Positions 13,046-31,000 of a stretch of DNA of 64,000 bases are shown here, in pieces; the first letter of the stretch is position 1; every line of letters starts with the position of its first letter. The position numbers and the translations under genes were made by a program. This stretch comes from a virus. Location: the IMG/VR virus record IMGVR_UViG_3300009156_000026, positions 37,734 to 101,733 of that record; one strand, written 5' to 3'. Under the pieces are notes generated by a model. It was not told the origin of the DNA, did no database searches, and was given only the letters and a program-made list of their open reading frames with translations.

Positions 13046-16000
13046 GTGGCCGCCGAAGAGTGGGAGTACGAGTACGACTATGACCAGCCCGAAGATTCGG
13101 GTGAGGACACGTCGTACGAGTACGAAGAGCCCAGCTACGAAGAGCCCAGCTACGAAGAGCCGGTCTACCAGGAGCCCAGCTACCAGGAGCCCAGCTACGA
13201 AGAGGGCGGCGACTGGTACGACGCCTACGCCCGTGGCTACAGCGGCGGCGGCCTTGGCTACGTCGCACCCGAGGCCGAGCCTGAAAGCTGGTACGACGCC
13301 TACGCCCAGGCGTTCAGCCCCCGCGTCGAGCAGCGTCCGACCGACCCGTACGCCTGGAGCTACAACGAGGGGGGCCGTCCCGAGACGATCGACACCTGGG
13401 CCGACGGCCGCCCGATGGACGAGAAGGCGGCCAAGCAGGCCCGGATCTACCGGGTGGCGCTCGAAAACGGGCTCGACGAGGAGGGCGCACGGGTCCTCGT
13501 CGCGGTCACCGAGACCGAGGCGGGACTCTTCGGCGCGCTCGGTGACGGCGGCCAGTCTCGCGGCCCATTTCAATTCTACGAAGGCGGGCAGATGCCGGCC
13601 TTCCGTCAGTGGGTGCAGGCCAACGGCATTCCCGGCGACCCCAACCAGCTTGTCCACGACCCCGAGATCGCGACCTCGTTCGCGGCCTCGAACTACCTGG
13701 GCGCCGCGATCAAGCGTGGGCAGGCGCAGGGGCTGCACGGCGCCGATCTCGCGACCTACGCCCAGCGGACGGGACAGGTCTCGGTCTCTCCCGAGCGGAC
13801 GGGCGAGAACTACCAGCGCCTGTTCGCCACGGGCGACCCGTACGGCGACGCCATCCGGGTGGCCCAGCCGTCAGCGGGGGCCCGGGCCCGTGCGAACGCC
13901 CAGATCCCGCCCGGGCACTGGGACGGCGACGGCCACGATCACGGCGTCGCGACCCCGTACACCCAGCAACAGGTCGGCCGTGACGGCTCGGTCTGGCAGA
14001 TCGCGTTCGACTTCGACCAGCCGTACGCGGACCCGTTCAACCCCCAGATCCCGAACCATCGCGGCGTCGACCTCCAGCTAGCCGGGGCGCCCAACGGCGG
14101 CGAGAACACCCCGTACACGGCGATGCGCAATGGACGGGTGGTCAAGATCACCAACGACCCCCACGGCGGGATCGGGATCATCGTCGACACCGGCGACCCC
14201 TCGGCCAGATATGACAGATATTTTCACAACAACGCCGTCAGCGTGCGCGAGGGCGACGTCGTCCAGGCCGGGCGGACCAACCTTGGGGTGATCGGTCAGA
14301 CCGGGAGTCAAGGCTTCCCGCACCTGCATTACGAGGTCAGCCAGAACGTTGACGGCGACCCGATGGGGCAGACGATCGACCCCCGTCCGTACCTCGGGCC
14401 ACCGCCCGGGCGGCCCCAGGCCGCTGTCCGTGCCCAGCCCGGGGCGCCGTGGGACCCGTACGCCCCGTACGGTGGCGCGCAGCAGCAGCAGCCGCGCGCA
14501 GCAGCCGCCGTGGCGGCGCAGCCGAACGTCGTTGAGCTCACGACGCCGTACACCTCGGGCCGCCGCCAGACCACCGACGGGATCGTGATCCACGCGACCC
14601 GTGGCCAGGGCGAGACCCCCCAGGCCGAGTACGAGTGGACGCTGGGCTGGTTCGGGAAGAACCCGTATCAGGTGAGTGCGAACGCCGTCATCGGCCCTGA
14701 CGGCCAGATCGCGATGCCCCGCGACTGGGATCTGATCACCCACCACGCGGGCGAAAATAATGCGACCAAGTTCGGGATCGAGTTGGCCCAGTCGGCCGCC
14801 GACTCGGCTCGCGGGGTGCCGTACACCGACGCCCAGTACGCCTCGCTCGGCTGGCTGCTCGGGCAGTTGCACCAGCGCTACGGCATCCCGATCGACAGAA
14901 GCCATGTGGTCGGGCACGAGGAGCTCGACCAGGGTCGTCGACAGAACAAGACCGACCCCGGCGAGAACTTCGACTGGGGGCGGGCCCTCCAGCTTGGCGC
15001 CCAGCCCCAGCGAGGGGTCCCGGCCCAGCAGGCCACCCAGACGGCCAGGGTCGCTCCAGCGGCGCCGTACCAGGACGTCGGCGGCACGGCCCCCGGCCGC
15101 CCGCCAGCGGGTACCCCGACACCAGCCACGGGCGGCAGCTACACGGTCGGCGGCCGTCCCGCGACCAGGGAGCAGTACGACGCGGCCGTCGCCAGCGATC
15201 GGGAGAGCCGCGACAGGTTCCTGGCCCAGCTTCCAGAGCCCACCCGGAACGCCTACACCGAGTGGGAGGCGTTCAGGCGTTCACGGGGCGAGGACCCCAA
15301 CGACATCCCGGCCTTCCGCGCGCACATCGATCGGCTCGGCGTCGAGAACCCCTGGACGGGCCAGGAGCAGCGTAGAGAGCAGGCAAGAGTCGCAAGAGAG
15401 CAGTTCGAGGCGTCGCTGCCCGAGACGACCAGGACCCAGTTCCGCGAGTGGGCAGCCGACCGTGAGGCCCGTGGTCAGGACCTTACCCTGCCGGCCTTCC
15501 GCGAGCACCTGGGTGCGCTCGGCGCGCCGGATCCCTGGACGGCCCAGGAGCAGGCCGCCCGTGCTGCGGCTGCCCGCCCGGCGGCGGCCACACCACCGCC
15601 GCCGGCCGGACGGACGGTCTACAGGTTAGCCGGCGGGACCGAGATCTCCGAGGCTCAGGCGCAGGAGATCGGGCGTCAGAATGCCGCCGCCGAGCGGATC
15701 AACGCCGGCTACAACGAGCGGATCGCGGCTGCCCGCGTCGAGCGGGAGCGGCTACGGACGTGGCAGGCCCAAAGCGACGCCTACTTCAACGATCCGAACG
15801 GCCAGCTTCCCCACCCGGGCCCGAGGCCGAGCACCGAGAACCTCGACTGGCTGGAGGCCGATGCGGCCAGGGGGGCCGACACGGGTGCCCGCGAGCAGCC
15901 GATCACGGTCGTCTCCAGCTACAACGAGCCGGCCTCGGCCGACGAGGTGGCAGCCGCCCGCGCCCGCGCCGAGGCCCGCGTCCAGACGGGCGCCCTGACC

Positions 16001-19000
16001 CGTGAGGCCGCAGCATCGTCGGACCCGCTCGTCCAGGCGGCCCAGGCGGCCCAGGCGCGATCCACCCAGCTTCTCCAGCAGGTCGAGAACCAGCGGATCC
16101 TCGATCGCGAGAGCCCGCTCGACCCCCGCTACATCGCGCTGGTCCGTAGCCAGGAGCTTCAGCGTCAGGGCGCGATGCAGGAGGGCCCGCTGCCCCAGCT
16201 TACCGACCAGGAGATCGCCATGCCCACGATCCGCCCGGCCCAGCCGGAGCGGTTCAATCAGGCGATCTACGACTACTACCGCAATCGCGGCTACTCCGAG
16301 GAGCAGGCCCGCGCCGAGGCGACCCTGGCGCCGGCCAGAGAAGCCACGATGGAGCCGCCGTCCCCGAGGGTGATCCAGGCCGATCCCGTCCCCGAGGTCG
16401 ACCCGAACATCTCGACCTACGAGGCGCTGGCGAACGCTGCGATCCGTGGCACCGCCGGACTGGCGACCGGGCTCTACAACATCCCCGAGGCGGTCGGCTA
16501 CTACACGGGTCAGACGTGGCTGGAGGAGGAGTCTAGAGAACGGATCCGTGGCATCCAGGGCGCCGTCCGTGAGTCGGGGGCGCTGCGTCAGTCGGGCAAC
16601 CAGTGGTACCAGAGCCCGCTCGGCTTCTTCGAGGGCGCCGCCGAGAACCTGCCCAACGTCGCCGCCACCGTCGGCGCGGCGTTCCTGACGGGTGGCGGAT
16701 CGATCGCCGCGATGGCGGCTGGCGGCGGGGCCCGGGTGGTCGCCCCGCTGCTCGTCCGTGGCGGGATGGCGGCCTCTCGGGCGGCGCTGGTGGCGGGGTC
16801 GCTGGCATCTGGCGGCCAGATGCGCGAGTCGCTCCGTGACGAGGTCGCGGCCGGCCTGATCAACCAGGAGACGGCCGACTTCGCGGGTGCTGTCGCAGCG
16901 GCCACCGAGGCGCTGACCGAGACGGTCATGCCGGGCCTGGACAGGATGGTCCTGCGCGGCTTCGGCCTCCAGGCCGCCAAGGAGATCGGTCACGAGCTCA
17001 TCAAGCGCGGCCTGGGCGGCGCGCTCAAGACGGTCGGCGGCGAGATCGTCAACGAGGCCGGCGAGGAGCTCGTGACCGAGGCGGTCGGGATCGGGACCGA
17101 CCTCGCCTTCTCGGCCCAGAAGCCGACCATGCTGGAGGCCGCCGAGCGGCTGGCCACGGCTGGTGTGATGGGCGGGGCCCTGGGTGGCGCGATGGCCGGC
17201 CCGATCACCGCTTCCGGTGCCGTCGTCCAGGCGCTCGAAGGCCGCAGAGAGACCGCCAACGCTCGCCAGCTTGACGCGGCCTTCGGCAGCCCGGCCGACC
17301 AGCTTGCCCGCGACGGGGTCCAGGTGGTGGTCGCCTCACCCGACTTCGGGACCTACGCCGTCCGCCACATCGACCCGACCAACCCGAACCGCCAGCGCGC
17401 GTTCACCCTGAACATCTCCGAGGATGCCGAGGGCAACGCGGTCGTCACCCCGGGCGGCGCCTATCGCGGCGAGCCGCTGCGGACCATCGACCTCCAGGAC
17501 CCGACCGCCGATCGGATGCGGGCCGCCCGCAACGCCGGCGCAGCGTTGACCTACCTGAACCAGCAGGGGGTGATCTCCAACGAGACGGCCTCGGGTGCGA
17601 TCGAGTCGCTCCAGAAGCGGGCCGAGGCCGCAGCCAGCGGTGCGGCGGTCGCGACCCAGGCCCGTCCGTCCCGCGAGGCATCCCTGGAGGAGGGGCCCGA
17701 GCGCAGCGAGGGGTATATCAAGCCCGACGGCTGGTCCGACGTCGGCACGATCCCCGGCACCGACCTGCACCTGCGAGCCGCCGACCACCTGCCGCAGCCG
17801 CTGGTCTCCCAGATCATGCGGGCCGAGGCCGATCGCGTGATCGCGGCCTCGGTCTCGGAGCTCACCGACCGCATGGACAAGCGGTCACAGGACCTGGGCA
17901 TCACGCCGAGGACGATCGTGCGCCGCCTGATGGGCACCTCGCTCTACGGCGCCGGGATGATCGCCCAGAACGACAACATCTTCGTCGAGGGGACCCGAAA
18001 CCGCGAGACCGGCATCGGCACGCTGGGCGGCTTCCAGTTCGATACGGGAGCCATCATCTTCGACGCGATCAACGACGCCAAGGAGGCTGGCTACAGCCTC
18101 GCCCAGTTCCTCGATCCGAGGGTCGGCGGGCGGTTCCTGGCGGCCAAGATCGCGGAGGTCGCGGTCCACGAGCCGAGCCACGACGTCAACGCCTACCATG
18201 GCGAGCGGTTCCACCAGACGATGACGGCCTACCGTCAGGCGCTGGTTGCGGAGCAGCGGGCGCTTGAGCCGATCATGCGCGAGCTTGTCTCGTCGGGCGC
18301 CGTCGAGCGGTCGCTGGCCCTGCACGCCCAGATGTACCGCGATCATGCCCGCCACTGGTACTGGCGAGGAAGGGGCCGAGATGTCGCAGCCGAGCTCGCA
18401 GCCCGAGATGCCCGACGCGGGACTCCCCTCGGGGGAGCTATTGATGTTCGTCGGCCTGATAGTCAAGGCGGCCGAGGAGCAAGACCAGCGGCTGCTCGAC
18501 CTGTACCTGCGGATGGCCGAGGAGTCGGGGCTATCACGCTCCGAGGTCCTGGCCTACGCCCTGCGGCGCAGGCCGGGGAACCCGCTACTGGCGTCCCTGA
18601 GCTAGGCCCGCCCTCGCCGCTGGTCTCGCGTGAGGCCGCCATGGCCAGTGGCGTCCCGGTCGAGATGCCGTCCGACCCACGGGTCCAACAGGCGCTCGCC
18701 CGCACGCCCGGTATCCAGGTCACCCCAGATGGACTGGTGGTTGATGCGACGCGGTTCCAGCGACGGGGCAGCGGCGGCGCGCCGTCGCTCTCGGGCAACG
18801 TCTACTACGGCGTCTCGGGGCCAGAGACGACCATCGGCGGCGACAACAGCTACTACGACCAGCGCGATCGGCTGGTCTACGGTGGGTCCGAGGCCGTCAG
18901 GGGTCCGACCGTCCTGCGCCGTCCGTTCGTCGGCACCTCGGGGGCGTTCCACCCGGAGGGGGCGCAGACGATTGCCGAGGCGGTGGGTGACCAGGATGCC

Positions 19001-22000
19001 GCCCGTCCGCTCGCGGTGCTCAATCAGGCTGGCTTCCTGAACACGGCGTCGCCCGAGGCCAGGGCGGCCATCACCGACGCCATGGAGCAGTACGGGGTCG
19101 ATCGCGCGATCCCCGAGCGGATCTTCCAGGCGCTTGACAGTGGGCTGATCCGCGAGCAAGCTGCCCGCTCGAACCTCTCCGAGGCGGTCGCTGGCGAGGC
19201 GTTGCGACGGGCCGGCTACGACGGCTACATCAGGCTGAACCCCGACAACACGGTCGACTCGATCATGGACGTCAGGGAGCAGACCTACCCGGACGAGGAG
19301 GGGCGAACCGCGCTCCATCCGCAGTTCGAGGGCGCAGCACCCGCTGTGACGCGCAGCGCCGACGGCTACGAGCAGATCGGCATGTTCGACTCGGACGAGG
19401 TCCGCCCGTCGAACATGGCCGCCCGCGAGGCTGCACTGTCCCGACCGATCCCGACCCGTGTCCAGTACCCGCCGGAGGTGGCCCAGCAGCTTCAGGCAGC
19501 CGGTCTGGAGCTCCAGCCTGAGCGGGGGCTGGTGGTGCCGATGGCGGCGCCAGCGGCGGGCGGCGTCGAGGCCGATCGCCGTCCCGATGGCGGCATCAGC
19601 TTCACCGAGCTTACGCCCGGCCCAGGTGGGCGCGAGGTCGCCCTGGCCAACCCGATCATCCACCAGGGCGGCACGATGGCCACCGATCGGGCGCAGGCGC
19701 TGGCCGATCTGCTGGGCGAGGACCCCGGGACGGGCTCCAGGTTAGTCGAAGCGATCCAGGACGCGATCGCGCAGGACGGCCCGACGACCGAGAACGTCAG
19801 AACGATCATGGCCTCGATCGGGCTGGGGGACCCGGATCAGGCGGCGCTGCTGGTCAAGGCAGCGAGAGGGGATACCGGCCAGGGCTCGGGCAGCTTGGCC
19901 AACCACATCGTCTCGCAGATGCTCGCGCACGAGGGGCGGATCCACGGCCACGACGGGCTTGTGACGCTCGGTCCAGACGGCGCCCCCAGCATCGCTAGCT
20001 TCCAGCGGCCCCAGGATACAGCCGACACGGGCTACGTGGTCGACGACGGACAGCTTCTCTACCGTGGGGAAGCGGAGACGCCTCCGAGCTATCAGGTGCA
20101 GGACGGCCAGCTTGTCCACCAGGGCACGGGCTATGAGGTGCAGGACGGCCGCCCGGTCTACCAGGGCCCGTCGGCCATGGTCCCGAGCATCCGCCCGATG
20201 CGCGACGCGGTCGAGGCCGAGATCGCGAAGATGGAGGGTCACCGCACCGAGTCCCTGGCTCGCGCCGAGCAGAGCGGCGACTCCTGGGGCTACGACGCCA
20301 ACAACGCCCGGCTGCTGGAGCAGCAGATCGCCCGTCGTCGAGCAGTGCTCGATCGGGTGGAGAGCCGGGCCCCGCTCGACTTCCCGGGCGTCGAGCCGAG
20401 GATCATCGTCCCGGCCGAGGCCGGCGAAGGGGTGACCACCTCGTCCGACTGGAACGGCGGCGTCCGCGCCTGGGCTCAGATCAACGGCGCCACCGTCCGA
20501 GGCGTCCCGATCGACGTGGACGACGAGCGGGTCCCGGACGTGCTGTACCACGCCACGACCAACCTACCGGCCGTCCAGCGCTCGGGCATGCTGCGGGCGG
20601 GTGGGGTCGGCGGGCTGGGCGGCGACAACCGCGACAACATCGTCTCGCTGACGATCAGCCGCCCGATTGCCGACGGGATCGCCCGTGACCTCCGTACGGC
20701 GATCGACGTGGCGCGCATCCCCGAGCCAGCCACGGTCCAGGTGCCCTGGGAGGACTCGCGGGGGCGGACCCACTACAGCACCGAGTGGGCCGATCCCGAG
20801 GAGTACCAACGCTACCGCGAGGCCGTGATCACCCGCCTCCAGGCGCAGGCCCGGACCGAGGGCTGGACGTGGGATGCCGAGCACATCTCGCCCACCGCTG
20901 CCGGGCGCGACATCTTCAGCACCTACTTCCAGGTGCGCTCGTACCAGACCGACCTGAAGAACCCGCTGATCTACACCGAGCTCGACGCGCTGCGGCTGAT
21001 CGACCCCGAGAACATCGGCGTCGTCGAGGTCCCCCGTGACGCCCTCAGGACAGGCGCGTTACTCACCGACCTGGACCTGGGGAGGAACCACCTCGAAGAG
21101 ATCAGAAGCTACGGCGACGTCCCGCTCCAGCCCGGGGTACCCACCAGCGGGCCCTCCGCGATGCAGGGCGAGCTTCCGCCGCCGCCGCCGATCGTCAGGC
21201 CCGACCAGCGGTCGTCACAGCCGTTCCCGTCGAACGTGATCATCCCCCGGCAGTTCATCGCGCCCGACCTCCGGGCCGGCCCCGAGACCGAGCTTGCCGA
21301 GCCGCCGCCCTTCGCAGGCCCCCCGCTGGTGGGTACCGAGGAGGCGATCGACGCGGGCTGGGCCGGCATCCCGGACCCCAGGACCCCGATCGAGAACCGC
21401 GCCGATCTGCACAATCGGCTGGTCCTGACGCGCTTCCTGTCGCAGCGGGAGCTCAAGGAGATCCTGGGCGAGCGCCCGCAGGACCTCCAGCAAGTCATCG
21501 ACTTCATGGTCGCCCAGCGCCAGAAGGTGGTCGAGGGACGGCTGCTGCCATCGGACGTCGCCAAGGCGTACCTGATGACGGTCTCGTCCCAGGGCCAGGG
21601 CGCGATCGACCCCCAGATCATCCTGGACAAGACGGGACTGGCGATCCCCGACCACTTCTTGACCCCCAACCGTGACGGGGTGCGGCAGATCCGCGCCGAG
21701 GACGCAGCGGCTGCCTGGATCGCCTCCCCGACGGGTCAGCGGACGCTGGCCCAGCTTGACCAGGGCACGTTCGACGAGGCCGGCTGGGAGAACGCCGCCT
21801 CCATTCGCGCGGCCTTCTCGGACGATCGGCTGAACAACAACAACGTCATGGGGACCCGTCCCAACAGACGGGGCAGGATCTCGATGCGGGACGTCGTGGC
21901 CTTGACTGCCGATCTCAACCAGATCGGGGACAACCCACGGGCGATGGCGGCGGCGGTCGAGCGCCTCAATGGGATCGGCCCCCGCAAGACGGGCTTCATC

Positions 22001-25000
22001 CAGCATCTGCTTGGCTTCGGGGAGATGCCGACCCTCGATGCGCGGGCCTTGAACACCTGGATCACGGGTCAGGGCGACATCCGAGGGATGGACACCGAGG
22101 CCGCCCAGATCGCCCGGCTGATGAACCAGCACTACGCGGCCGACGCGACGGGGATCCTGACATTAGCCCGGATCATCAGCGGCTACAACCAGCTTCGCCG
22201 CTCCGGGTTCGCCCCCGACATCCCGAAGGCCGTCTACAACGCGGTCCTGCACAACTGGCTCTGGACCCGCATCAAGGGCCATGAGCGCACCTACGCCCCG
22301 ATGTACGAGGCCCAGGCAGCCCCGGTCGAGCCCATCCCCCAGACCGAGTGGTCGCGCGACGACTTCGAGACCCGCAACCAGATGATGGAATCCTGGATGC
22401 GCGACCCGTACGAGGCCGAGGATCGCGAGCTCGGGCCGTACGATCCCGATGCCCGCGAGGGCCCGTCCGCCATGGCGGCCGAGATCCCCTCGATCCCAGC
22501 CTACCTGCGAGAGCACGCCGTCCCGTTCGCTGGCTACGAGCCGAACACGATCGAGGGGCGGATGGAGCAGGTGCTGATGGACGCGGCCCGCGCCCAGGGC
22601 ACCAACCGACCGCAGTTCGAGAAGGGCGAGCTCGGCAAGCTTGAGCCGAAGTTCCTGCCCAGCCCGACCGCCACCAAGGTCGAGATCAAGAAGAACCCGG
22701 ACGGCACCAACAAGAAGGACAAGAAGGGCAAGGACGTCTGGGTCGAGAGCAACTACGGGGTAACGCCAGCCCTGGAAGATCAGCGGGTGGCGCTCCAGCT
22801 TGGGCGGCCGGCCTCGCGCTGGTACACCGAGCTTGCCCACTGGGTCTACGAGCGGGTCGGGCCCGAGGCGTTCGACGAGTTCCGCGTGATCTTCGGGGTG
22901 ACCTCCGCCCAGACCGAGCCGACCGAGAACATGGCGACGACGTTCGCCGCGATGAAGATCGCCCGCGAGATGGCGGCCGAGGGGATCCTCGACGACGCCC
23001 ACCGCGACGAGTTCCACGCGCGGATGAAGGCGTACCGGATCCCCAGCGTCAGTGAGGGGGTGGCCAACGTCGAGAAGGACGGCACCCCGAAGATGGTCGG
23101 CTTCCGGACCTACACCGAGGGCAAGGGCAAGCAGATCATGGACCTCTACACCACGGGGTCCGTGACGGTGCAGACGAACGCCAAGACCCCGTCCTACGCT
23201 GGCAACATGATCTCGGCCCTGATGGGCGTCTACGACCCGAACGTGACGGTCGACGTCTGGATGGCGCGGGCCATGAACTACTGGTCGACATCCTGGATGG
23301 CGACCTCGGATCAGGCGTACCGCGCATCGCACGCGATCTACAACTGGCTCGCGCGCGAGGAGGGCATCAGCCCGCACGAGGCCCAGGCCGCGATCTGGTT
23401 CCCGATCAAGACCGCCTGGGAGCGGGGCGGAACGGCGATCCGCCAGAAGATCCAGGATGGCGATCTGGCTGACGCGCTCCGAGACGCCGAGCAGGCTGGC
23501 CTGCTGCGCCCCGAGCTCATCCGTGGCGACCTCGCCGCGATCAACGCCGACGCCCGGGTCCAGCACGCCTGGGAGCAGCTTGCGCCCGTGATCGCCTCGT
23601 CTCCGCTCTCGCCAGGGCAGGCCGAGGCCGGCGTCACCGACATCGTCTACCCAGGCCAGACCAGAGGCCGAGGCGAGACCAAGGAGCCAGCCCGCCCGGT
23701 CGATCGGGCCCAGCGGGCGGCACTCCTGGACGTGGCCGAGGGACAGGCGCCGACGGTCGGGATCGTGGGGGTCCCTGACCGCGCCGCCCTCGGCTACGCC
23801 AACGGCCAGCTTGACTGGCTCGGCCAGCCGCATCAGGTGGTCCCGATCGGGGACGGGCTGATGGTCCGTCTGGTGGGCGGCAACCTCGACACCGCCCGCT
23901 ACGTCGCGGCCGAGCTTGGTGAGCGCGCCGGCGCCCCAGCGGTCTCGCTCCAGCTTGCCTCGACAGAAGGCAACGCGCTCGGCTACGTCTTCTCGTCCTC
24001 GGGGGAGGAGCCGATCGAGAAGGCCGATCTGGAGGCGATCTCGGCGCTGGTCGCGGGGACCGGCATCCCGCTGGTGGCAGATCCCGGCGGCCACTACGTG
24101 GCCCTGATTGACTCGCCGTCGGTACCCGAGGAGATCTATAATTCGACGGTCGACGCGATCGCCAACCTGGGGATCGCGGGACTTGAACAGGAGGGTTACC
24201 GTGGCTGGGCAGAGCATCTCCCTGCGGCCGAGTATCGAGGAACGATTCAAGCGCTTGGGCATCGGTTCGGCGCCGGCGAGCCACAAGATCTACCAGTCGG
24301 GGCCGCAGGTGGTGATCGTGCTGCCGAAGAAGGCGGAGCCGAAGCCCAAGGAGTAGGCCCGTCGGCCATGGGCGCGGAAGCTCCCTGGGCCGAGGGCTGG
24401 TCCCAGCCGACCCCCGAGGAGTTCCTGCGGATCCGCTCCCAGAGCGATCGCGGGGCGTACCTGTCGGCCTCGGACGTCGACAGTCTCAGGGGCAAGCGGC
24501 TCTTCGTCAAGCCGACCGACACGGGTGGCTACGCCGGGTTCGCGCTCGACGAGGACAACGACCTCCAGAACGTGTTCAACGTCCCGGGCCCTGACGGCCG
24601 GAAGTCGAAGGGGGCCGGGGTCGACGCGATGCTGATGGGGATCAGCCAGGGCGCCGACAAGCTGGACGCCTTCGACCCGTTCCTGCCGAAGTATTACCAT
24701 CAGTTCGGGTTCCGCGAGACGGGCCGCGTGCCGTTCAACGACGAGTACGCGCCCGAGGGCTGGGACTACGCCAATGGCCGCCCCGACGTGGTCCTGATGA
24801 CCTGGGACGGCTTCCACAACGGAGAGAGCCCCGATGACGTCCGCGCCAGGGTCGGAGGACCCAAGACCGAGTGGATCGCCCAGCCTCACGCCCGAACCTT
24901 CGACGACTGGGACCAAGCAGCGGAGGTACGCGACGGACGACTCGCTGACCTCCGAGGAGGTGCAGTTCCTGGACGAGTGCGTCCCGTTGCTGGGCCAGGA

Positions 25001-28000
25001 CGTGGTGGACCGGCAGTACGGCCTGATACTGGACCAGGGGCGGCAGGTCGGGGAGATCTAGCCGGGCCATCAGCCATGGTCGGACGTGAGGCGGCTATCA
25101 CCACTGGCGTCCCGCTTGACCTGCCGACCCGCCGTGGCTTCTTGCAGGCGGTAGAGAATACAGACGGCGCCCAGATCACACCCGACGGCCTCTCGGTCGA
25201 TCTGATCCGCTGGCAGCAGCCCGAGCAGGTTGGCGCCGAGGCTGGCCAGTCCGCCGTCTTCTACCTCGCTTCCGGCACGCACGCGCGGGACGTCGACACC
25301 TATCGCGGCACCTTCCTGGGCGACTATGGCGGCGACCAGCGGATCGCCGGGCCGTCGGTCTTTCGTCGGCCGTTCGTGGCGCGGGCGGGCGTGGGTGACG
25401 CTGCCATCGCGGCCTACGCTGCGCTCAATGGCCAGGAGGCCACCGATGCGATGCGCGGCCCGGTGGGTCGGCTCGGGGGCTTCCCGCGTCTCAGCCGCGA
25501 CGAGGTAGTCGCGCGTACCCGCGATATCTTGACCCGTCACGATGCCGGCCCAGAAGCCGCCGAGCAGATCGTGGACGCCTACCGCCTGGGTGCTCCGTTG
25601 GAGAACGCGGTCGAGGAGCGGATCGTCTCCCACGACTTGCGCCGCCGTGGGTACGACTCGGTCATCGGCTACAGCGGGGTCGGCCGCAACGCGCGCTTGA
25701 CCGAACTGATGGATGTGCGGGAGCGGACCTACCCTGATGAGACGGGGCAGACCGAACTGCACCCGCAGTTCGGTCCTGGCCCCTCGGCCATGGCGGCCGA
25801 GATCCCAGGCTGGGTACCCGTCAGCGGGATGCCGGACGACCTGCACCAAAGAGTCCTGTCGGGCAGCCCCCGGCTCCAGGCGGTCGCGGCCGAGAGCACC
25901 GCGACCTTGCAGGAAGCCCTGATGGAGGCGCTGGACTCGGACCCGCTGATGACCGACGCGGACCGTCAGGTCCTGCACGGCCACGCCAGCTTCTACACCT
26001 CCGCGATCGTCGGGCTCGCGACAGAAGATCCCGCCCGCCTGGAGGCGGTCGGGCTTGACTACGCATCGGCGGAGCTCGAGCGAGATCGGGCGATCGGGCA
26101 CCTCGAACGGATCGGACGGCTCGACGCGCTCTACAACGCCGAGGCCGCCTGGGCGAGCCTGTCCCCCCGTGACGATCCGAGCCAGGGCCGACCATCCGCC
26201 ATGGCCGGCGAGGTCCCGGTCACGCTGGCCGAGCCGTTCTACTCCAGGCTGACCCAGGTCGCAGGCGCGTTGCCCGAGATGATCGAGGGCAACCCGGGGC
26301 GGCTGGTAAGAGACAAGGCCCGCCCGGAGCGGGTCGTCAGAAGGGCGGCCCAGAACCCGAACCGCGAGGAGCCGCCGCCCGAGCGCGGCTGGATCATGGC
26401 CGAGGACGGAAGCTGGATCGAGCCGGCCCGTGAGGGGTCCGAGCGGATGGTCGAGGTGACCACGGGCGCCCAGGAGACCATGCGGCGACTCCGCGAGGCC
26501 GGGGCCAAGCCGGACGAGCTCGCCTGGACGGGCGTCGAGACGTGGCTGCGCGACCAGGGCGACGGCCCCATCGACCGGGCCGCGCTGATGGACCACCTCT
26601 CCCAGCGGCGCATTGTCGTCGAGGAGATGGTGCTCGGCGGGCGCGAGATCGGGCAGATCCACGTCTACCAGGACGGCCCCGAGGAGATCGTCGAGCAGGA
26701 GCCGTACGAGGTCGAGGAGGGGTACGAGGACGACGAGGGCAACTACGTCGAGCCGGAGTACCTGTACGACGACGAGTCCGAGCCGGAGTACCGCTACACC
26801 TTCCGGGCGGCCCCCGAGGAGAACGAGCTTGGCGACGAGCTCGTCTACGAGGCGACGGGCAACGACGACCAGGGCTACTGGGTCACCACGGTCGACGGCG
26901 AGCCGATCGGCAACGACCCCGTCGATGACCTGGAACGCGTCGAGCGGGCGATCGGGGACCACGCCCGCCTGCGGCTGGAGGAGCCGCTGCCCGAGGGCGT
27001 GGCCGGGCCCGTCCAGTTCGAGTGGGAGCCCGGGGATCCGTCCGCCCCGCTGGTCCAGCCCGGCGGCGAGGAGTACCGGGAGGTGCTGCTCATCCTGCCG
27101 TGGCGGGGCCGCGAGGAGCTCGCGCTCTTCGAGCAGGCGGCCGATCGCGCGTCCGATGCCTACCACGCGTTCACGGCCGACCACTCCTACGAGGAGCGGG
27201 TCGACGACCTCGACCTGCGCCGACAGTCTCTCGAGCTCCTGGATGCGGCCAACCGAGCCCGTGCAGAGCTCGACGCCAAGCGCGTGGAAGTCGAGCGCCA
27301 GCGGTACACCGGCAGCCACTTCACGCAGCCCGGGTCCTACAACCCGGTCGAGAACGTCGCGGTGCATGTCCGCATGACCACGCGGATCGGCCCCAACGGT
27401 GAGCGGCGGGTGTTCATCGAGGAGATCCAGTCGGACTGGCAGCAGCAGGGCCGCGAGAAGGGGTTCATGCCGAAGTCGGGCCTGCCGAAGGGGTACGCCG
27501 TCGAGTTTCGCCCGCCCTCGCGGATCGACCCCACCCAGGCAACCCGGATCGGTGGCCGCTTCGACAATGCGTCTGGTCGCTACGTGGACGAGACCGTCCT
27601 GGAGCCCGGCACCCCCGAGCACGCCCGCCAGATGCGGTCCTACTCGAAGTGGTACGCCGTGACGCCCGACGAGGCGGCCCGCGACGACGCGGCGTTCGAC
27701 AGCGAGGCGGAGGCGCGGACGTACCTGGAGCGCCAGATCGCCAAGGACAACCCGCCGCCCGAGTTTCCGTTCATGCGGACCGAAAGCTGGGCGACCCTGG
27801 CGTTCCGACGGATGATCCGCTGGGCCGCAGAACACGGCTACGACCAGATCGCCTGGACCACGGGCGCCCAGCAGAACGACCGCTACGGCCCCAGGCGGAT
27901 CAAGAACCCCGAGGCGCTGCCGAAGTTCTACGACGGGGTGCTGGTCACCGTCGCGACCGACCTCGGCAAGCCGTGGGGGGTCGCTCCCACCAGGAGCCAG

Positions 28001-31000
28001 ATCTCGGTCCACGAGACGGGCCAATTCGGACAGGTCGTCGAGCAGCCCGACGGCTGGCGGTACACCCTGCCGAACGGCACATCGCTCGGCGGGTACCCCA
28101 CCCAGGAGGCCGCCCAGGCCGCAGCCGATGCCGAGGCCGAGCGGGCGGGGACAGCGGAGGCGGTCCACGTCCTGGACATCCCGCCCCAGATGAAGCGCTC
28201 GGCGCTCGAAGAGGGCCAGCCGCTGTTCATGGCGGGCGAGATGCCGACGGGCCAGCCCCCGGGTGACCCCGAGGCGCAGTGGGACCGCCAGGACCCGCAG
28301 GACGCGACCGACCCGGCCCTGGCCGAGGCGATCGATCTCGACGGCGCGGTCCAGGAGATCGACGACCCGGACGCGTTGCCCAGGACCGACGGCCCCGAGC
28401 AAGTCCAGATGATCCTGCCGGGCTTTGACACGGTGCCGATCTCCGACGAGGAGTACGACCGCATCGTGGCTGCGCTCGACGCCAACGAGGCTGTCTCAGG
28501 CGCCCCGCCAGTGGGGGGCGCGGCCCCGCAAATATCGGCTCCGCCGACATCCCCGCCACCAGGACCGCCCGCACCCCCCATCTCGTTCCCCGAAGACGAG
28601 CCCGTGCCCGGGGTCCCGAACCTCGGGCCACCGACCGGCAATGAGCCAAACCTCGACCAGTTCCCGTCCTGGGCGCAGGCACTCCTGGAGATGGGATCGC
28701 TGGTCGAGATGGGCGATCCGAACGTCGGGATGCTGGGCGAGCGAGCGCGGCTGATCAGAGAAGTCCAGGCCCGCCCGAACGCCGAGGCGATGTCAGCCGC
28801 GCAGATCGAGGCGGCTGCCGACAGGATCCTGGCCCAGCGCCGTGAGTTCCGGGCCGCCAACGAGACCGAGTGGGCCGACGCGATCATGATGATAGCTGCC
28901 GGCCCGAACGCCGAGGGCCTGTCCAGGCGAGAGCAGCAGATCCTGGCCGGCGCGATCATGCGGCAGTACAAGCTGTTCCAGCGGGCGGCCGATCGGGCCC
29001 AGGGCCAGCGGGCTACCCCCTGGTCGGTGGCCCAGATGCTCGACGAGGCCCGCAAGTTCTCCGCGATCAGGGGACTCGCGATCACGCCAAGAGACCAGTG
29101 GGCGATGCTCGACGAGGTCTGGCGCTCGGCACCCGTGACGCAGGGCGCCTCTGGCACGCTGGAGGAGTTCCTGGAGGTGAGACAGGCAGCCCAGGACGCC
29201 GGCGACACCGACGCCGTGGCGCGCCTTGAGGAGGAGGGGATCGCCAGAGCAAGCGGGATGGTCGCACGGACCCGCCCGACGCCGATCGCGGGACGACGCC
29301 GAGCGACAGCCGAGGGCGAGCTCGTACGCTACGGACGGACGATGGCGGATCAGGTCCGTGGCGAGACCACCCCCTCCGAGGCGGCGGCAGCGGCAGCCGC
29401 CCCGGACCTGTCGATCCACCCGTGGGAGATCCTCTCGAACGTCCGCTACAACAACATGCTCTTGGGTCCCCGAGGCATCTTGAACGACTACGCCTGGAAC
29501 ACGGGCATGCTGTTCGGGAAGATGATGGCCGACCCCTTCTTGCCCGAGACGGGGGGGCTGGACCCGCGCGCCCGCTGGGCGATCACCAAGGTCGAGGCCG
29601 CCGCGATGGCTAGATACCTGCCGCTGGCGATCAGGCGGATGGGGCGGATCCTCTTCACGGGTGTCGACACCCTCGAATCCGAGGCCACGGGTGCCCCGCG
29701 TAACATCTCCGGGCGGCTCACCCGCCGGATCGAGAACGCCCGCGAGGAGGGCGCGGGCGAGCGCTCCCCGAAGCTGCTCAAGCTGAAGGCCAGCAAGGTC
29801 GGGGCGGTCCTGTTCGCGGAGCTCGCCGGCCGACTCAAGGGGATGGCCGACGTCGGGATCAAGCAGATCGCCTGGGGCATGGAGATGAACCGACAGGCCG
29901 CGATCCTGGCGTGGCGCGAGGGCGTCCACGAGGTCGACTCCGACGAGTGGCACGAGCGGATTGCCGAGATCATGGCCGGCAACATCGCGGGACCCAACGC
30001 CACCCCAGAGGAGCGCCGGGCGGCGACCGCGACCCACCTCCAGATGCAGAAGAACGCCCGCCGAGAGGCCGAGCGGACCACCTTCCAGGGCGACATGGGC
30101 ACCTTCGGACGCAAGCTGGAGCCGATCCAGCGCCACCCCGTGGGCCAGTTCGTCCTGCCGTTCTTGAAGACGCTCTACCACATCCGTGGCTGGGCCATCG
30201 ATTTCTCGCCGCTGGGGCTCGCTGGCACCGTCTACGACGTCGCTCGATCAGCCGCCTACAAGAAGGTGATGCAGTCCGATCGCGGCCAGCGGATGCTCGG
30301 GACCCCGAACATCCCGCTGCCGTTCGGGCAGGCGATCCCGACCCGCAACGCCTTCGGGATCCTGGGCGGGCCGTACCAGGACGCCTGGAGGGGCACCCAG
30401 GTGGGCCCGGGGGTGGCCGACCTCGACCGACGGCTGATGGCGAACATGATCGGCACGACCGGCTTCTTCTACCTGCTGGGGCTCGCCTTCGAGGGCGCGC
30501 TCTCGGCCAGCGGCCCGCCCGACGATCCGATCGTCTGGTTCGACGAGGAGCTCCCGTCGGGCGACGCCCGCTCGCTGAAGCGGACGATGCAGGCGACGGG
30601 CTGGCGGCCGTACTCGGTCAAGATCCCGTGGCGGGGCCAGGACTACTGGGTCAACTACTCGAACTGGGGCCCGCTCGGCTACATGATGGGCGCGGCTGCC
30701 GCGATCGGGGAGTCGTACCTGTACGGCGTCTCGGCCGAGAAGAAGCGGCCCTTGACGGGCAGTCCATTCCCGGACTCCTGGCAGGGCATCCAGGACCTCT
30801 GGAACGGGGGCGATGGCGATACCCTGCGGACCGCCCGCCGACGGTTCTTCGGGATGATCTCGGACGTGACCTTCCTGTCTGGCATGAGCGACCTCGTCAA
30901 GCTGACCGACGCGGCCTGGGATTGGGTGGTCCCGGAGGGGCCAGAGACGCCGAGCATGGCGCTCCGTCGCCAGCACGGGGCCCAGAACGAGATCGGGGCG

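Follow-up and report, generated by a model that had tools for sequence, protein, structure and literature searches.

Candidate partner genes embedded in the inter-module linkers of a giant polyvalent phage protein

Introduction

Are three small open reading frames that lie entirely inside one giant gene, all in its +1 frame, genes in their own right, and if they are, what is the larger gene doing in the sequence that they share? The 64,000-nucleotide stretch of viral DNA analyzed here (the window; positions are counted from its first letter) raises this question with ORFs A, B, and C. A first-pass annotation had read them as partner genes captured together with the enzymatic modules of the giant protein, fused into it as dual-coding linkers and still expressed from internal ribosome-binding sites. 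With a probability of roughly 0.6, we favor the reading that the giant gene encodes a polyvalent virion protein in which three inter-module linkers are dual-coding, each with a partner gene embedded in it. Embedded genes are routinely missed by annotation. If this reading holds, polyvalent phage proteins can expand when translation runs on through partner genes in a shadow frame, and the DNA of a linker can at the same time encode a second protein.

Results

The giant protein has no cysteine in its 6325 amino acids, and several unrelated effector domains share the one polypeptide: Peptidase_M23 and Amidase_2, both matched in Pfam near the N terminus, a GNAT-like module, and a HExxH module. A further match, to DUF7178, is weak and under the Pfam cut-off. 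The GNAT-like module matches phrog_2563 in PHROGs (3.3e-14) and can be aligned to contigs L006 and L007. In the alignment of the HExxH module, H164, E165, H168, H174, and F178 are invariant, and the motif HExxH-x5-H-x3-F is kept in three lineages. The only profile match of this module is to the YgjP-like family PF01863 (E=0.067, below cut-off); from the motif and this sub-threshold match, we tentatively assign it as a metallopeptidase-like module. The features of the region are as follows.

13046..32023, plus strand: giant ORF, host frame of the embedded genes; 6325 aa, modular virion-type polyvalent protein
17678..18370, plus strand: HExxH module, host frame; HExxH-x5-H-x3-F motif, zincin-like, weak YgjP-like match
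18366..18375, plus strand: SD-like GAGGAAGGGG preceding the ATG of ORF A
18381..18605, plus strand: ORF A, embedded gene of 74 aa by sequence comparison; +1 frame, ATG, predicted four-helix protein, conserved family
18605..18619, plus strand: GPPSP delimiter, host frame; first base overlapped by the ORF A stop
24189..24195, plus strand: SD-like AGGAGGG for ORF B; strong, 5 nt spacing to GTG
24201..24356, plus strand: ORF B, candidate embedded gene of 51 aa; +1 frame, GTG start, before the GNAT-like module
24356..24370, plus strand: GPSAM delimiter opening the GNAT-like cassette
24371..24900, plus strand: GNAT-like (phage 'acetyltransferase') module, host frame; conserved C-terminal F/YDxWD segment
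24821..24826, plus strand: SD-like GGAGAG for ORF C
24834..25061, plus strand: ORF C, candidate embedded gene of 75 aa; +1 frame, ATG, start within the end of the GNAT-like module
25064..25078, plus strand: GPSAM delimiter opening the next (ART-like) module

The three ORFs proved to lie where the first-pass annotation had placed them and in the frame that it gave, each with coding-type codon usage and GC3 and each preceded by an SD-like motif and a start codon. Their ends fall at the module delimiters as described there: in A and B, the final G of the TAG stop doubles as the opening base of the GPPS or GPSAM Gly codon, and for C, the TAG stands 3 nt before the Gly codon of its GPSAM. The use of TAG itself is not significant, since by a crude count TAG is frequent in this genome.

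Long ORFs in alternative frames are common at 70% GC, and the giant ORF holds 49 stop-to-stop ORFs of at least 50 codons in its +1 frame. This is what one would cite for the simplest alternative, that A, B, and C are chance shadow ORFs of GC-rich DNA, or else products of frameshift errors in assembly. Codon usage speaks against chance: among the 49, it favors +1 over frame 0 only in A, B, and C (+1 minus frame-0 score, +0.07 to +0.41 nats per codon), with the other 46 at -0.48 to -1.20 nats per codon. When the giant ORF was scanned in 210 non-overlapping 90-nt windows, LL(+1)-LL(0) was +2.1 to +35.8 within the stretches of A, B, and C and -26.1 ± 8.8 outside them, with a maximum of 2.9. GC at codon positions 1/2/3 is.72/.45/.91 in nested frame A,.61/.45/.90 in B, and.65/.49/.88 in C, compared to.71/.51/.88 for the whole giant ORF, whose own GC3 drops to.45-.49 over the nested stretches. 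The earlier description of GC3-rich nested frames over a degrading giant frame is thus borne out by both codon-position GC and codon usage. Chance is further contradicted by the protein family and confident fold of ORF A (see below), and assembly error is contradicted by the recurrence of the same frame relation in independent assemblies from different samples, namely the 99.9% identical contig L005 and seven diverged lineages. Taken together, these observations refute this alternative, which we regard as extremely improbable.

ORF A offers the fullest comparative record. Its family comprises at least 13 small proteins, and a profile search returned 12 true matches of 53-122 aa and no long in-frame fusions; two long matches, P0012 and P0017, were rejected as translated tandem repeats rather than relatives. 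Queries with the host module and the nested ORFs found no relatives in IMG/VR, GTDB genomes, cultured phages, or plasmids, and Pfam, PHROGs, and ESM Atlas searches with A, B, and C gave nothing usable. In the databases searched, ORF A homologues stand mostly where a contig end removes most of the giant gene; one giant relative, P0002, is covered by two short contigs only.

DNA was available for seven lineages of 64-74% GC (the window, L003/L004, L009, L010, L011, L014, and L017). In all seven, ORF A is open with its start kept, lies +1 relative to the downstream gene, and directly follows the C terminus of the HExxH module, while the host frame is stop-free throughout those contigs. An eighth lineage, seen from coordinates only (the contig of P0011), likewise has its relative in +1 to the downstream gene. 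A GGAG/GAGG-like motif lies 5-10 nt 5′ of the ATG in 6/7 lineages, with L010 having only GGTGGAAAG. The module downstream varies, being different in L010, L011, and L014, and the host motif P[ED]L[GA]PP at the delimiter after ORF A is retained in relatives.

Frame-specific comparison of these lineages shows purifying selection on the nested frame, with amino acid identity of 0.47 and pN/pS of 0.70. The host frame across ORF A (identity 0.30, pN/pS 1.27) resembles the null +2 frame (0.31 and 1.09). Given the nested proteins, the probability that the host frame stays open is 0.33-0.61 each, with a product of ~0.1 for the window and ~0.08 for three relatives. The ATG is invariant in the seven lineages, with the overlapping host codon being GAT, CAT, AAT, or TAT (D, H, N, or Y), although the presence of the start is partly ascertained because relatives were drawn from called small proteins. 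T-ending codons such as this host NAT are otherwise disfavored in this genome. Judged from these comparisons, ORF A is a real conserved embedded gene, and the giant frame over it is an unconstrained G/A/R/P-rich linker. With constraint falling on the nested frame, capture of a gene that already existed would be a better fit than overprinting de novo.

What might ORF A encode? The earlier suggestion that it is ribbon-helix-helix-like did not survive: there is no Pfam match to that class (CopG/Arc/MetJ), and the AF2 model (pLDDT 87) has four helices and no strand, including none at the N terminus. Searches with this model in Foldseek (PDB and AFDB clusters) and VIA-align wide gave generic helical hairpins and bundles only (best values, Z 6.4 and E above 0.2). 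Modeled with the HExxH module, ORF A gave a complex score of 0.78, compared to 0.01 for the best of three controls; the calibration, in which the mark was reached by 58/80 solved complexes and 2/110 mismatched pairs, holds only roughly for this pair, which was modeled from our own, shallow alignments (3 and 14 rows). The interface takes in H164 and H168 of HExxH. The ORF A product is therefore predicted, from the model, to bind the HExxH module on its catalytic helix. The complex model would fit equally well with ORF A binding in trans or packing in cis.

The cis arrangement brings up programmed +1 ribosomal frameshifting near the module end, which would add A, B, or C as a C-terminal tail, with termination at TAG giving truncated products that end exactly at module boundaries. 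The modeled interface would suit an intramolecular C-terminal subdomain just as well, the +1 frame is open for 15-67 codons 5′ of the ATG in every lineage, and in several lineages the coding signal switches frame at one homologous position. Purine-rich SD-like motifs can also stimulate +1 shifts, as in prfB. However, no slippery or hungry-codon motif is common to the seven lineages just 5′ of ORF A, the ATG does not vary while the host residue does, and the codon-usage switch sets in only ~25-40 nt 5′ of the ATG, near the SD motif, and lasts up to the TAG. We know of no precedent for three efficient +1 shifts within a single gene. We consider frameshifting distinctly unlikely, and prefer separate initiation of embedded genes. 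A search of RNA runs found none that contains the sequence.

For B and C, no significant homologues were found, and the small +1 ORFs that occupy the corresponding positions in L007 and L008 show no sequence relationship to those of the window; for the +1 ORFs that precede the GNAT-like module in the window, L007, and L008, mutual similarity is no better than after shuffling. The AGGAGGG and GTG of ORF B were seen in the window only. What recurs in other phage contigs is the arrangement of +1 ORFs around GNAT-like modules. After the F/YDxWD segment, the coding signal shifts to +1 in the window, L006, and L007, and L006 has GGAGA and an ATG at the place homologous to the start of ORF C. In the window, the +1 signal of ORF C becomes dominant only from ~24900, its first ~22 codons overlapping the conserved host segment. 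A single-sequence fold of ORF C was uninformative (pLDDT 60).

With no significant homologues found, B and C could be recent relics. The +1 signal would then be left from small genes, or from the initial parts of genes lying downstream, swallowed after upstream stop codons had disappeared, so that, at least for B and C, the giant linker would now be the sole translated frame. L006 lends weight to this idea: its +1 frame after the GNAT-like module continues as a long GHKL-ATPase-like gene, and ORF C could accordingly be a truncated 5′ remnant. For ORF A, conservation, pN/pS, and a start and stop kept in seven lineages exclude such an origin. For B and C, it is opposed by nested GC3 that is still.88-.96, with the host frame at.37-.49, right up to the stop codon, and by strong SD motifs that have been kept. 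For B there is also one polymorphism: contigs from four other samples are identical to the window save for a single SNP, 24341 G>C, which is synonymous in ORF B and E>Q in the host frame. On balance, we think fossil frames unlikely, and from codon usage and start signals, B and C, which flank the GNAT-like module, are probably embedded genes like ORF A.

Discussion

The proposal of captured module-plus-partner cassettes in dual-coding linkers thus stands best for ORF A, which is conserved, has its own start, is coinherited with the HExxH module, and is modeled as binding it. For B and C, codon usage, start signals, and the recurring arrangement speak for embedded genes, and the lack of significant homologues speaks against them.

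We propose that the giant gene produces a modular polyvalent virion protein in which each dual-coding linker would carry a small +1 gene, with its own ribosome-binding site and start, as the constrained frame. Across each of these genes, the giant frame would have no stop and would read as a G/A/R/P-rich linker of low complexity. Each small gene would start within the C-terminal part of one module and stop at the beginning of the next, and thus the overlap would be confined to sequence dispensable for the giant protein. ORF A would be translated separately from its internal ATG, and its four-helix product may cap the catalytic helix of the zincin-like HExxH module encoded just upstream. More speculatively, it might restrain this peptidase inside the cell that makes the phage, with the restraint ending once the giant protein has been packaged or ejected on its own.

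One can extend this, tentatively and with considerable doubt of our own, to linker-encoded small proteins in general acting as safety catches, each silencing an individual enzymatic module in the producing cell and staying behind at packaging. ORF A would cap the processing peptidase; with the small proteins left behind, the ejected protein would stay inactive until it reached the next host, where its activity and its cleavage at the GPSAM sites would begin. Embedding would ensure that an inhibitor always travels with its module, in inheritance and in shuffling, as a single cassette. If the embedded-gene reading itself holds, the peptidase thought to process polyvalent proteins may have a dedicated, coinherited binding partner, and the locus would offer a direct way to study how ejection proteins with several enzymes are kept from doing harm while they are assembled.

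Among known systems, lambda Rz1 lies wholly within the +1 frame of Rz, on the same strand and with its own start, and the two products act as a complex. ORF A occupies a comparable position, nested in +1 within the giant gene, and the predicted binding target of its product is the host-protein segment encoded immediately before it. The gene that Rz1 overlaps, however, is small and encodes structured protein at the overlap, and both lambda products are lysis proteins; here, one host gene, for a multi-enzyme protein of 6325 aa, contains three candidate embedded genes, all at disordered linkers, and the host frame over ORF A lacks amino acid constraint.

The giant protein resembles the polyvalent proteins of phages and conjugative elements described by Iyer et al. 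2017 (PMC5512222) in its many enzymatic modules, HExxH among them, and it has N-terminal wall hydrolases as well. In that study, the zincin-like MPTase is a hub domain, and MPTase-type modules were proposed to process the polyprotein; the words 'overlapping' and 'frameshift' are absent from its text. The Pfam model of those MPTases has no match here, where there are only the motif and the weak YgjP-like match.

As in toxin-immunity and toxin-antitoxin cassettes, a small partner, predicted from the model to bind, shows tight linkage to an enzymatic module and accompanies it through changes of neighbors. In contrast to polymorphic toxins, or to GNAT toxins paired with ribbon-helix-helix antitoxins, the partner gene does not sit next to the module's gene but is nested within it in a different frame, and ORF A is not a ribbon-helix-helix protein and has no Pfam or PHROGs match. 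Finally, as in the overprinting of small viruses of the phiX174 type (reviewed in PMC8227390), two proteins would come from one DNA stretch, one frame being constrained and the other compositionally biased and disordered. Classic overprinting has the newer frame nested within the older; here, it is the embedded frame that is conserved and the long host frame that is unconstrained.

Coding signal in the +1 frame of the giant ORF

The source record is a 108.7-kb IMG/VR virus of 70% GC, and the window sequence is present in rhizosphere metagenomes. The features discussed here are as follows.

13046-32023, + strand: giant ORF (host frame), 6325 residues, with Peptidase_M23 and Amidase_2 near the N-terminus (Pfam)
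17678-18370, + strand: HExxH module
18381-18605, + strand: ORF A, nested, +1 frame
24201-24356, + strand: ORF B, nested, +1 frame, GTG start
24371-24900, + strand: GNAT-like module
24834-25061, + strand: ORF C, nested, +1 frame
18605, 20165, 21149, 22460, 24356, 25064, 25778 and 26186, + strand: GPSAM-type motifs between modules (DNA about GGCCCGTCGGCCATGG)

Three stretches of the giant ORF carry their coding signal in the +1 frame. The peak of a GC frame plot shifts to +1 over ~18296-18686, 24146-24416 and 24836-25166, where giant-frame GC3 is.48-.54 vs.88 overall. A codon-usage likelihood scan returned the same three stretches (18338-18599, 24197-24377 and 24881-25106) and no other of comparable +1 strength in 19 kb; of 49 +1-frame ORFs of at least 50 codons inside the giant ORF, +1 beats frame 0 only in A, B and C. 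For non-overlapping 90-nt windows, the score of +1 minus frame 0 is -26.1 +/- 8.8 in the background, with a maximum of 2.9, and +2.1 to +35.8 inside the three stretches, the central windows lying at +17 to +36. At ORF C, the +1 signal prevails no earlier than about 24900; upstream of this point the host frame is the stronger one, and it is conserved there as the F/YDxWD end of the GNAT-like module. The first-pass annotation had described three small +1-frame ORFs with coding-type codons, and the GC3 plot and codon-usage scans bear this out; their starts, SD-like motifs, TAG stops and positions at delimiters are likewise as it had stated.

The giant protein has 0 cysteines vs 103 tryptophans; ORF C has one cysteine. 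The giant protein ends in a repetitive P/A/T-rich tail (31676-32006) in which GC3 periodicity is weakly lost and the +2 frame is weakly preferred (9.7 nats), probably a compositional effect. GPSAM-type delimiters also occur in the giant relative P0002 (8 motifs) and in the contigs L011 and L017. The motif's Met lines up with potential start codons inside the gene (REAAM in the window), and the delimiter might serve for cleavage, mark a recombination joint or act as a start.

Conservation of ORF A and of its place after the HExxH module

P0002 (3625 aa, 38% identity) is the sole giant relative in the protein database, and its linker aligns weakly in the giant frame. Two metagenome contigs of its lineage, L003 and L004, carry a clear ORF A homologue in +1 that likewise ends in SLS-TAG on host PELGPP and shows the same GC3 shift. 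An ORF A profile run exhaustively against 1.84 billion representatives gave 15 matches: 12 true relatives of 53-122 aa, the cluster P0005 (from the L003 contig) and two junk repeat proteins, which were discarded. No long protein with the ORF A domain fused in frame was found in this search. DNA from five further lineages was analysed as well: L009, L010, L011, L014 and L017 (GC 64-74%). All lineages with DNA have the small ORF in +1 with respect to the gene downstream, a host frame that is stop-free across the contig, and host-frame GC3 of.41-.54 over the small ORF; the contig of one more relative, P0011, known from gene coordinates alone, shows the same +1 relation. The search thus uncovered a family of small proteins, with the C terminus of the same HExxH module immediately upstream in every lineage with DNA. 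The downstream module is ART-like in four lineages and different in L010, L011 and L014, so the small gene travels with the upstream module.

The two frames differ in constraint. Between the window and the L003/L004 lineage, 56 ungapped codons give 54% amino-acid identity and a dN/dS of about 0.5 in the nested frame, vs 31% and about 1.7 in the giant frame. Across 21 of 21 lineage pairs, identity and pN/pS are 0.47 and 0.70 in the nested frame, 0.30 and 1.27 in the host frame, and 0.31 and 1.09 in the unused +2 frame. Given that host-frame values are close to those of the +2 frame, the giant-frame amino acids here are as unconstrained as those of a noncoding frame, the frame being just kept open. 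The chance of an open host frame, given the nested proteins and phage codon usage, is 0.33-0.61 per case; these values multiply to about 0.1 over the three ORFs of the window and to about 0.08 over three independent relatives. Constraint is thus found in the nested frame and, at the amino-acid level, none in the host frame. Its protein family, its constant position and these substitution patterns mark ORF A as a real, conserved gene nested in the linker that follows the HExxH module.

Route of expression of ORF A

The nested ATG is found in 7/7 lineages, a few codons past the host's conserved W. In host-frame terms the site always reads NAT, then G, and encodes D, H, D, N, N, Y and Y across the lineages; the nucleotides are thus kept and the host amino acid is not. 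Codons ending in T are otherwise disfavored (GC3.88). GGAG/GAGG-like motifs lie 5 to 10 nt before the ATG in six of the seven lineages, L010 having just GGTGGAAAG, and codon usage switches ~25-40 nt before the ATG, close to the SD motif, and switches back at the TAG. One can also envision +1 frameshifting into ORF A from the giant frame, given that the +1 frame has no stop over a good distance ahead of the ATG and that the relatives were recovered via called proteins, a route biased towards ORFs with starts. Against this, the ATG is invariant despite the changing host residue, and no slippery or hungry-codon motif upstream of ORF A is common to the seven lineages. Together with the SD-like motifs and the switch position, these observations favor internal initiation over frameshifting.

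Predicted fold and binding of ORF A

The AlphaFold2 model of ORF A (14-row alignment; pLDDT 87, core above 95) has a disordered P/S-rich leader followed by four helices, not the ribbon-helix-helix that had been proposed from the sequence; fold searches with the model returned just generic helical hairpins. In the HExxH module, HExxH-x5-H-x3-F (18119-18200) is invariant in three lineages, with a sub-threshold YgjP-like Pfam match at the motif. We take this spacing to be that of YgjP/WLM/SprT-type minimal zincins. When the module (231 aa) and ORF A were modelled as a complex, two runs gave a score of 0.78 and the third gave 0.85; none of three controls exceeded 0.01. In a calibration that is approximate, since custom alignments were used, this mark was reached by 58/80 solved complexes and 2/110 mismatched pairs. 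The predicted interface joins module residues 133-197, including H164 and H168 of HExxH, to ORF A helices 1 to 3. The models support binding of the embedded protein to the catalytic helix of the preceding module, in trans or packed in cis, and ORF A is very likely the partner of that module.

ORFs B and C

ORFs B and C have excellent +1 codon usage right up to the stop. Nested GC3 is.90 in ORF B, whose last 24 codons, read from the sequence, all end in G or C and whose SD is the best of the three, and.96 in the core of ORF C. Across four other samples just one polymorphism turned up, 24341 G>C, which is present in one rhizosphere sample and in the database protein P0001; it is silent in ORF B (Pro) and replaces Glu by Gln in the giant protein. 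Similar arrangements recur in other phage-like contigs. The shift of the coding signal to +1 comes directly past the F/YDxWD of the GNAT-like module in the window and in L006 and L007; in L007 and L008, a +1-coded stretch also lies ahead of the GNAT-like domain, within an uninterrupted called gene.

Stretches of +1 GC3 with protein-like small ORFs, in called genes of 389-498 aa on phage-like contigs with a GNAT-like domain
L007: 10046-10190, 10700-10900, 11260-11440
L008: 5783-6001

L006 has an SD and an ATG where ORF C has them, at the corresponding xPD codon (GAT) of the host frame. Past the GNAT-like gene of L006, the +1 frame runs on as a long GHKL-ATPase-like gene (overlap, ~260 nt), which makes ORF C a possible truncated remnant of a gene of this kind. 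In L006 (59% GC; 300-360, 1790-2060), which may contain indel errors, a domain that is unbroken in the giant protein (its residues 2882-3091) is divided over two frames, 1 and 2, the frame break falling inside the domain; each frame step is +1. The small +1 ORFs of these contigs have no significant similarity to B, C or one another, and database searches found no other homologues of B or C. Codon usage, SD motifs and recurrence, set against this lack of homologues, make B and C probable embedded genes; that they are recent relics is a live alternative. Within the region, DNA similarity to cultured phages is confined to 24646-24733, where the matches are free-standing "acetyltransferase" genes of 125 aa in Streptomyces phages (Celia, Zemlya and others); these genes have neither the tail nor the nested ORF.

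Frame, stops and known systems

In the frame one base upstream of a GC3-rich gene, T-initial codons are nearly absent; only a small gene +1 to the host can thus be read through without stops. The host protein can tolerate an overlap only in places where it needs no particular sequence, so the nested gene must stop before the next module. These two constraints account for both regularities, and a special role for TAG at the delimiters is unneeded, TAG being a common stop in this genome.

The first-pass annotation had interpreted the nested ORFs as captured cassettes of a module plus its partner. This is partly supported: it has support for ORF A, a conserved gene embedded after the HExxH module, and none for its ribbon-helix-helix label. 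Embedded +1 genes are already known in phages (Rz/Rz1); as far as we found, no polyvalent protein has been described with partner genes nested in its linkers. The words "overlapping" and "frameshift" are absent from the text of the study of polyvalent proteins by Iyer et al. (2017, PMC5512222). The architecture of the giant ORF corresponds to the proteins described there, among which the zincin-like HExxH peptidase is the hub domain and the proposed polyprotein processor.
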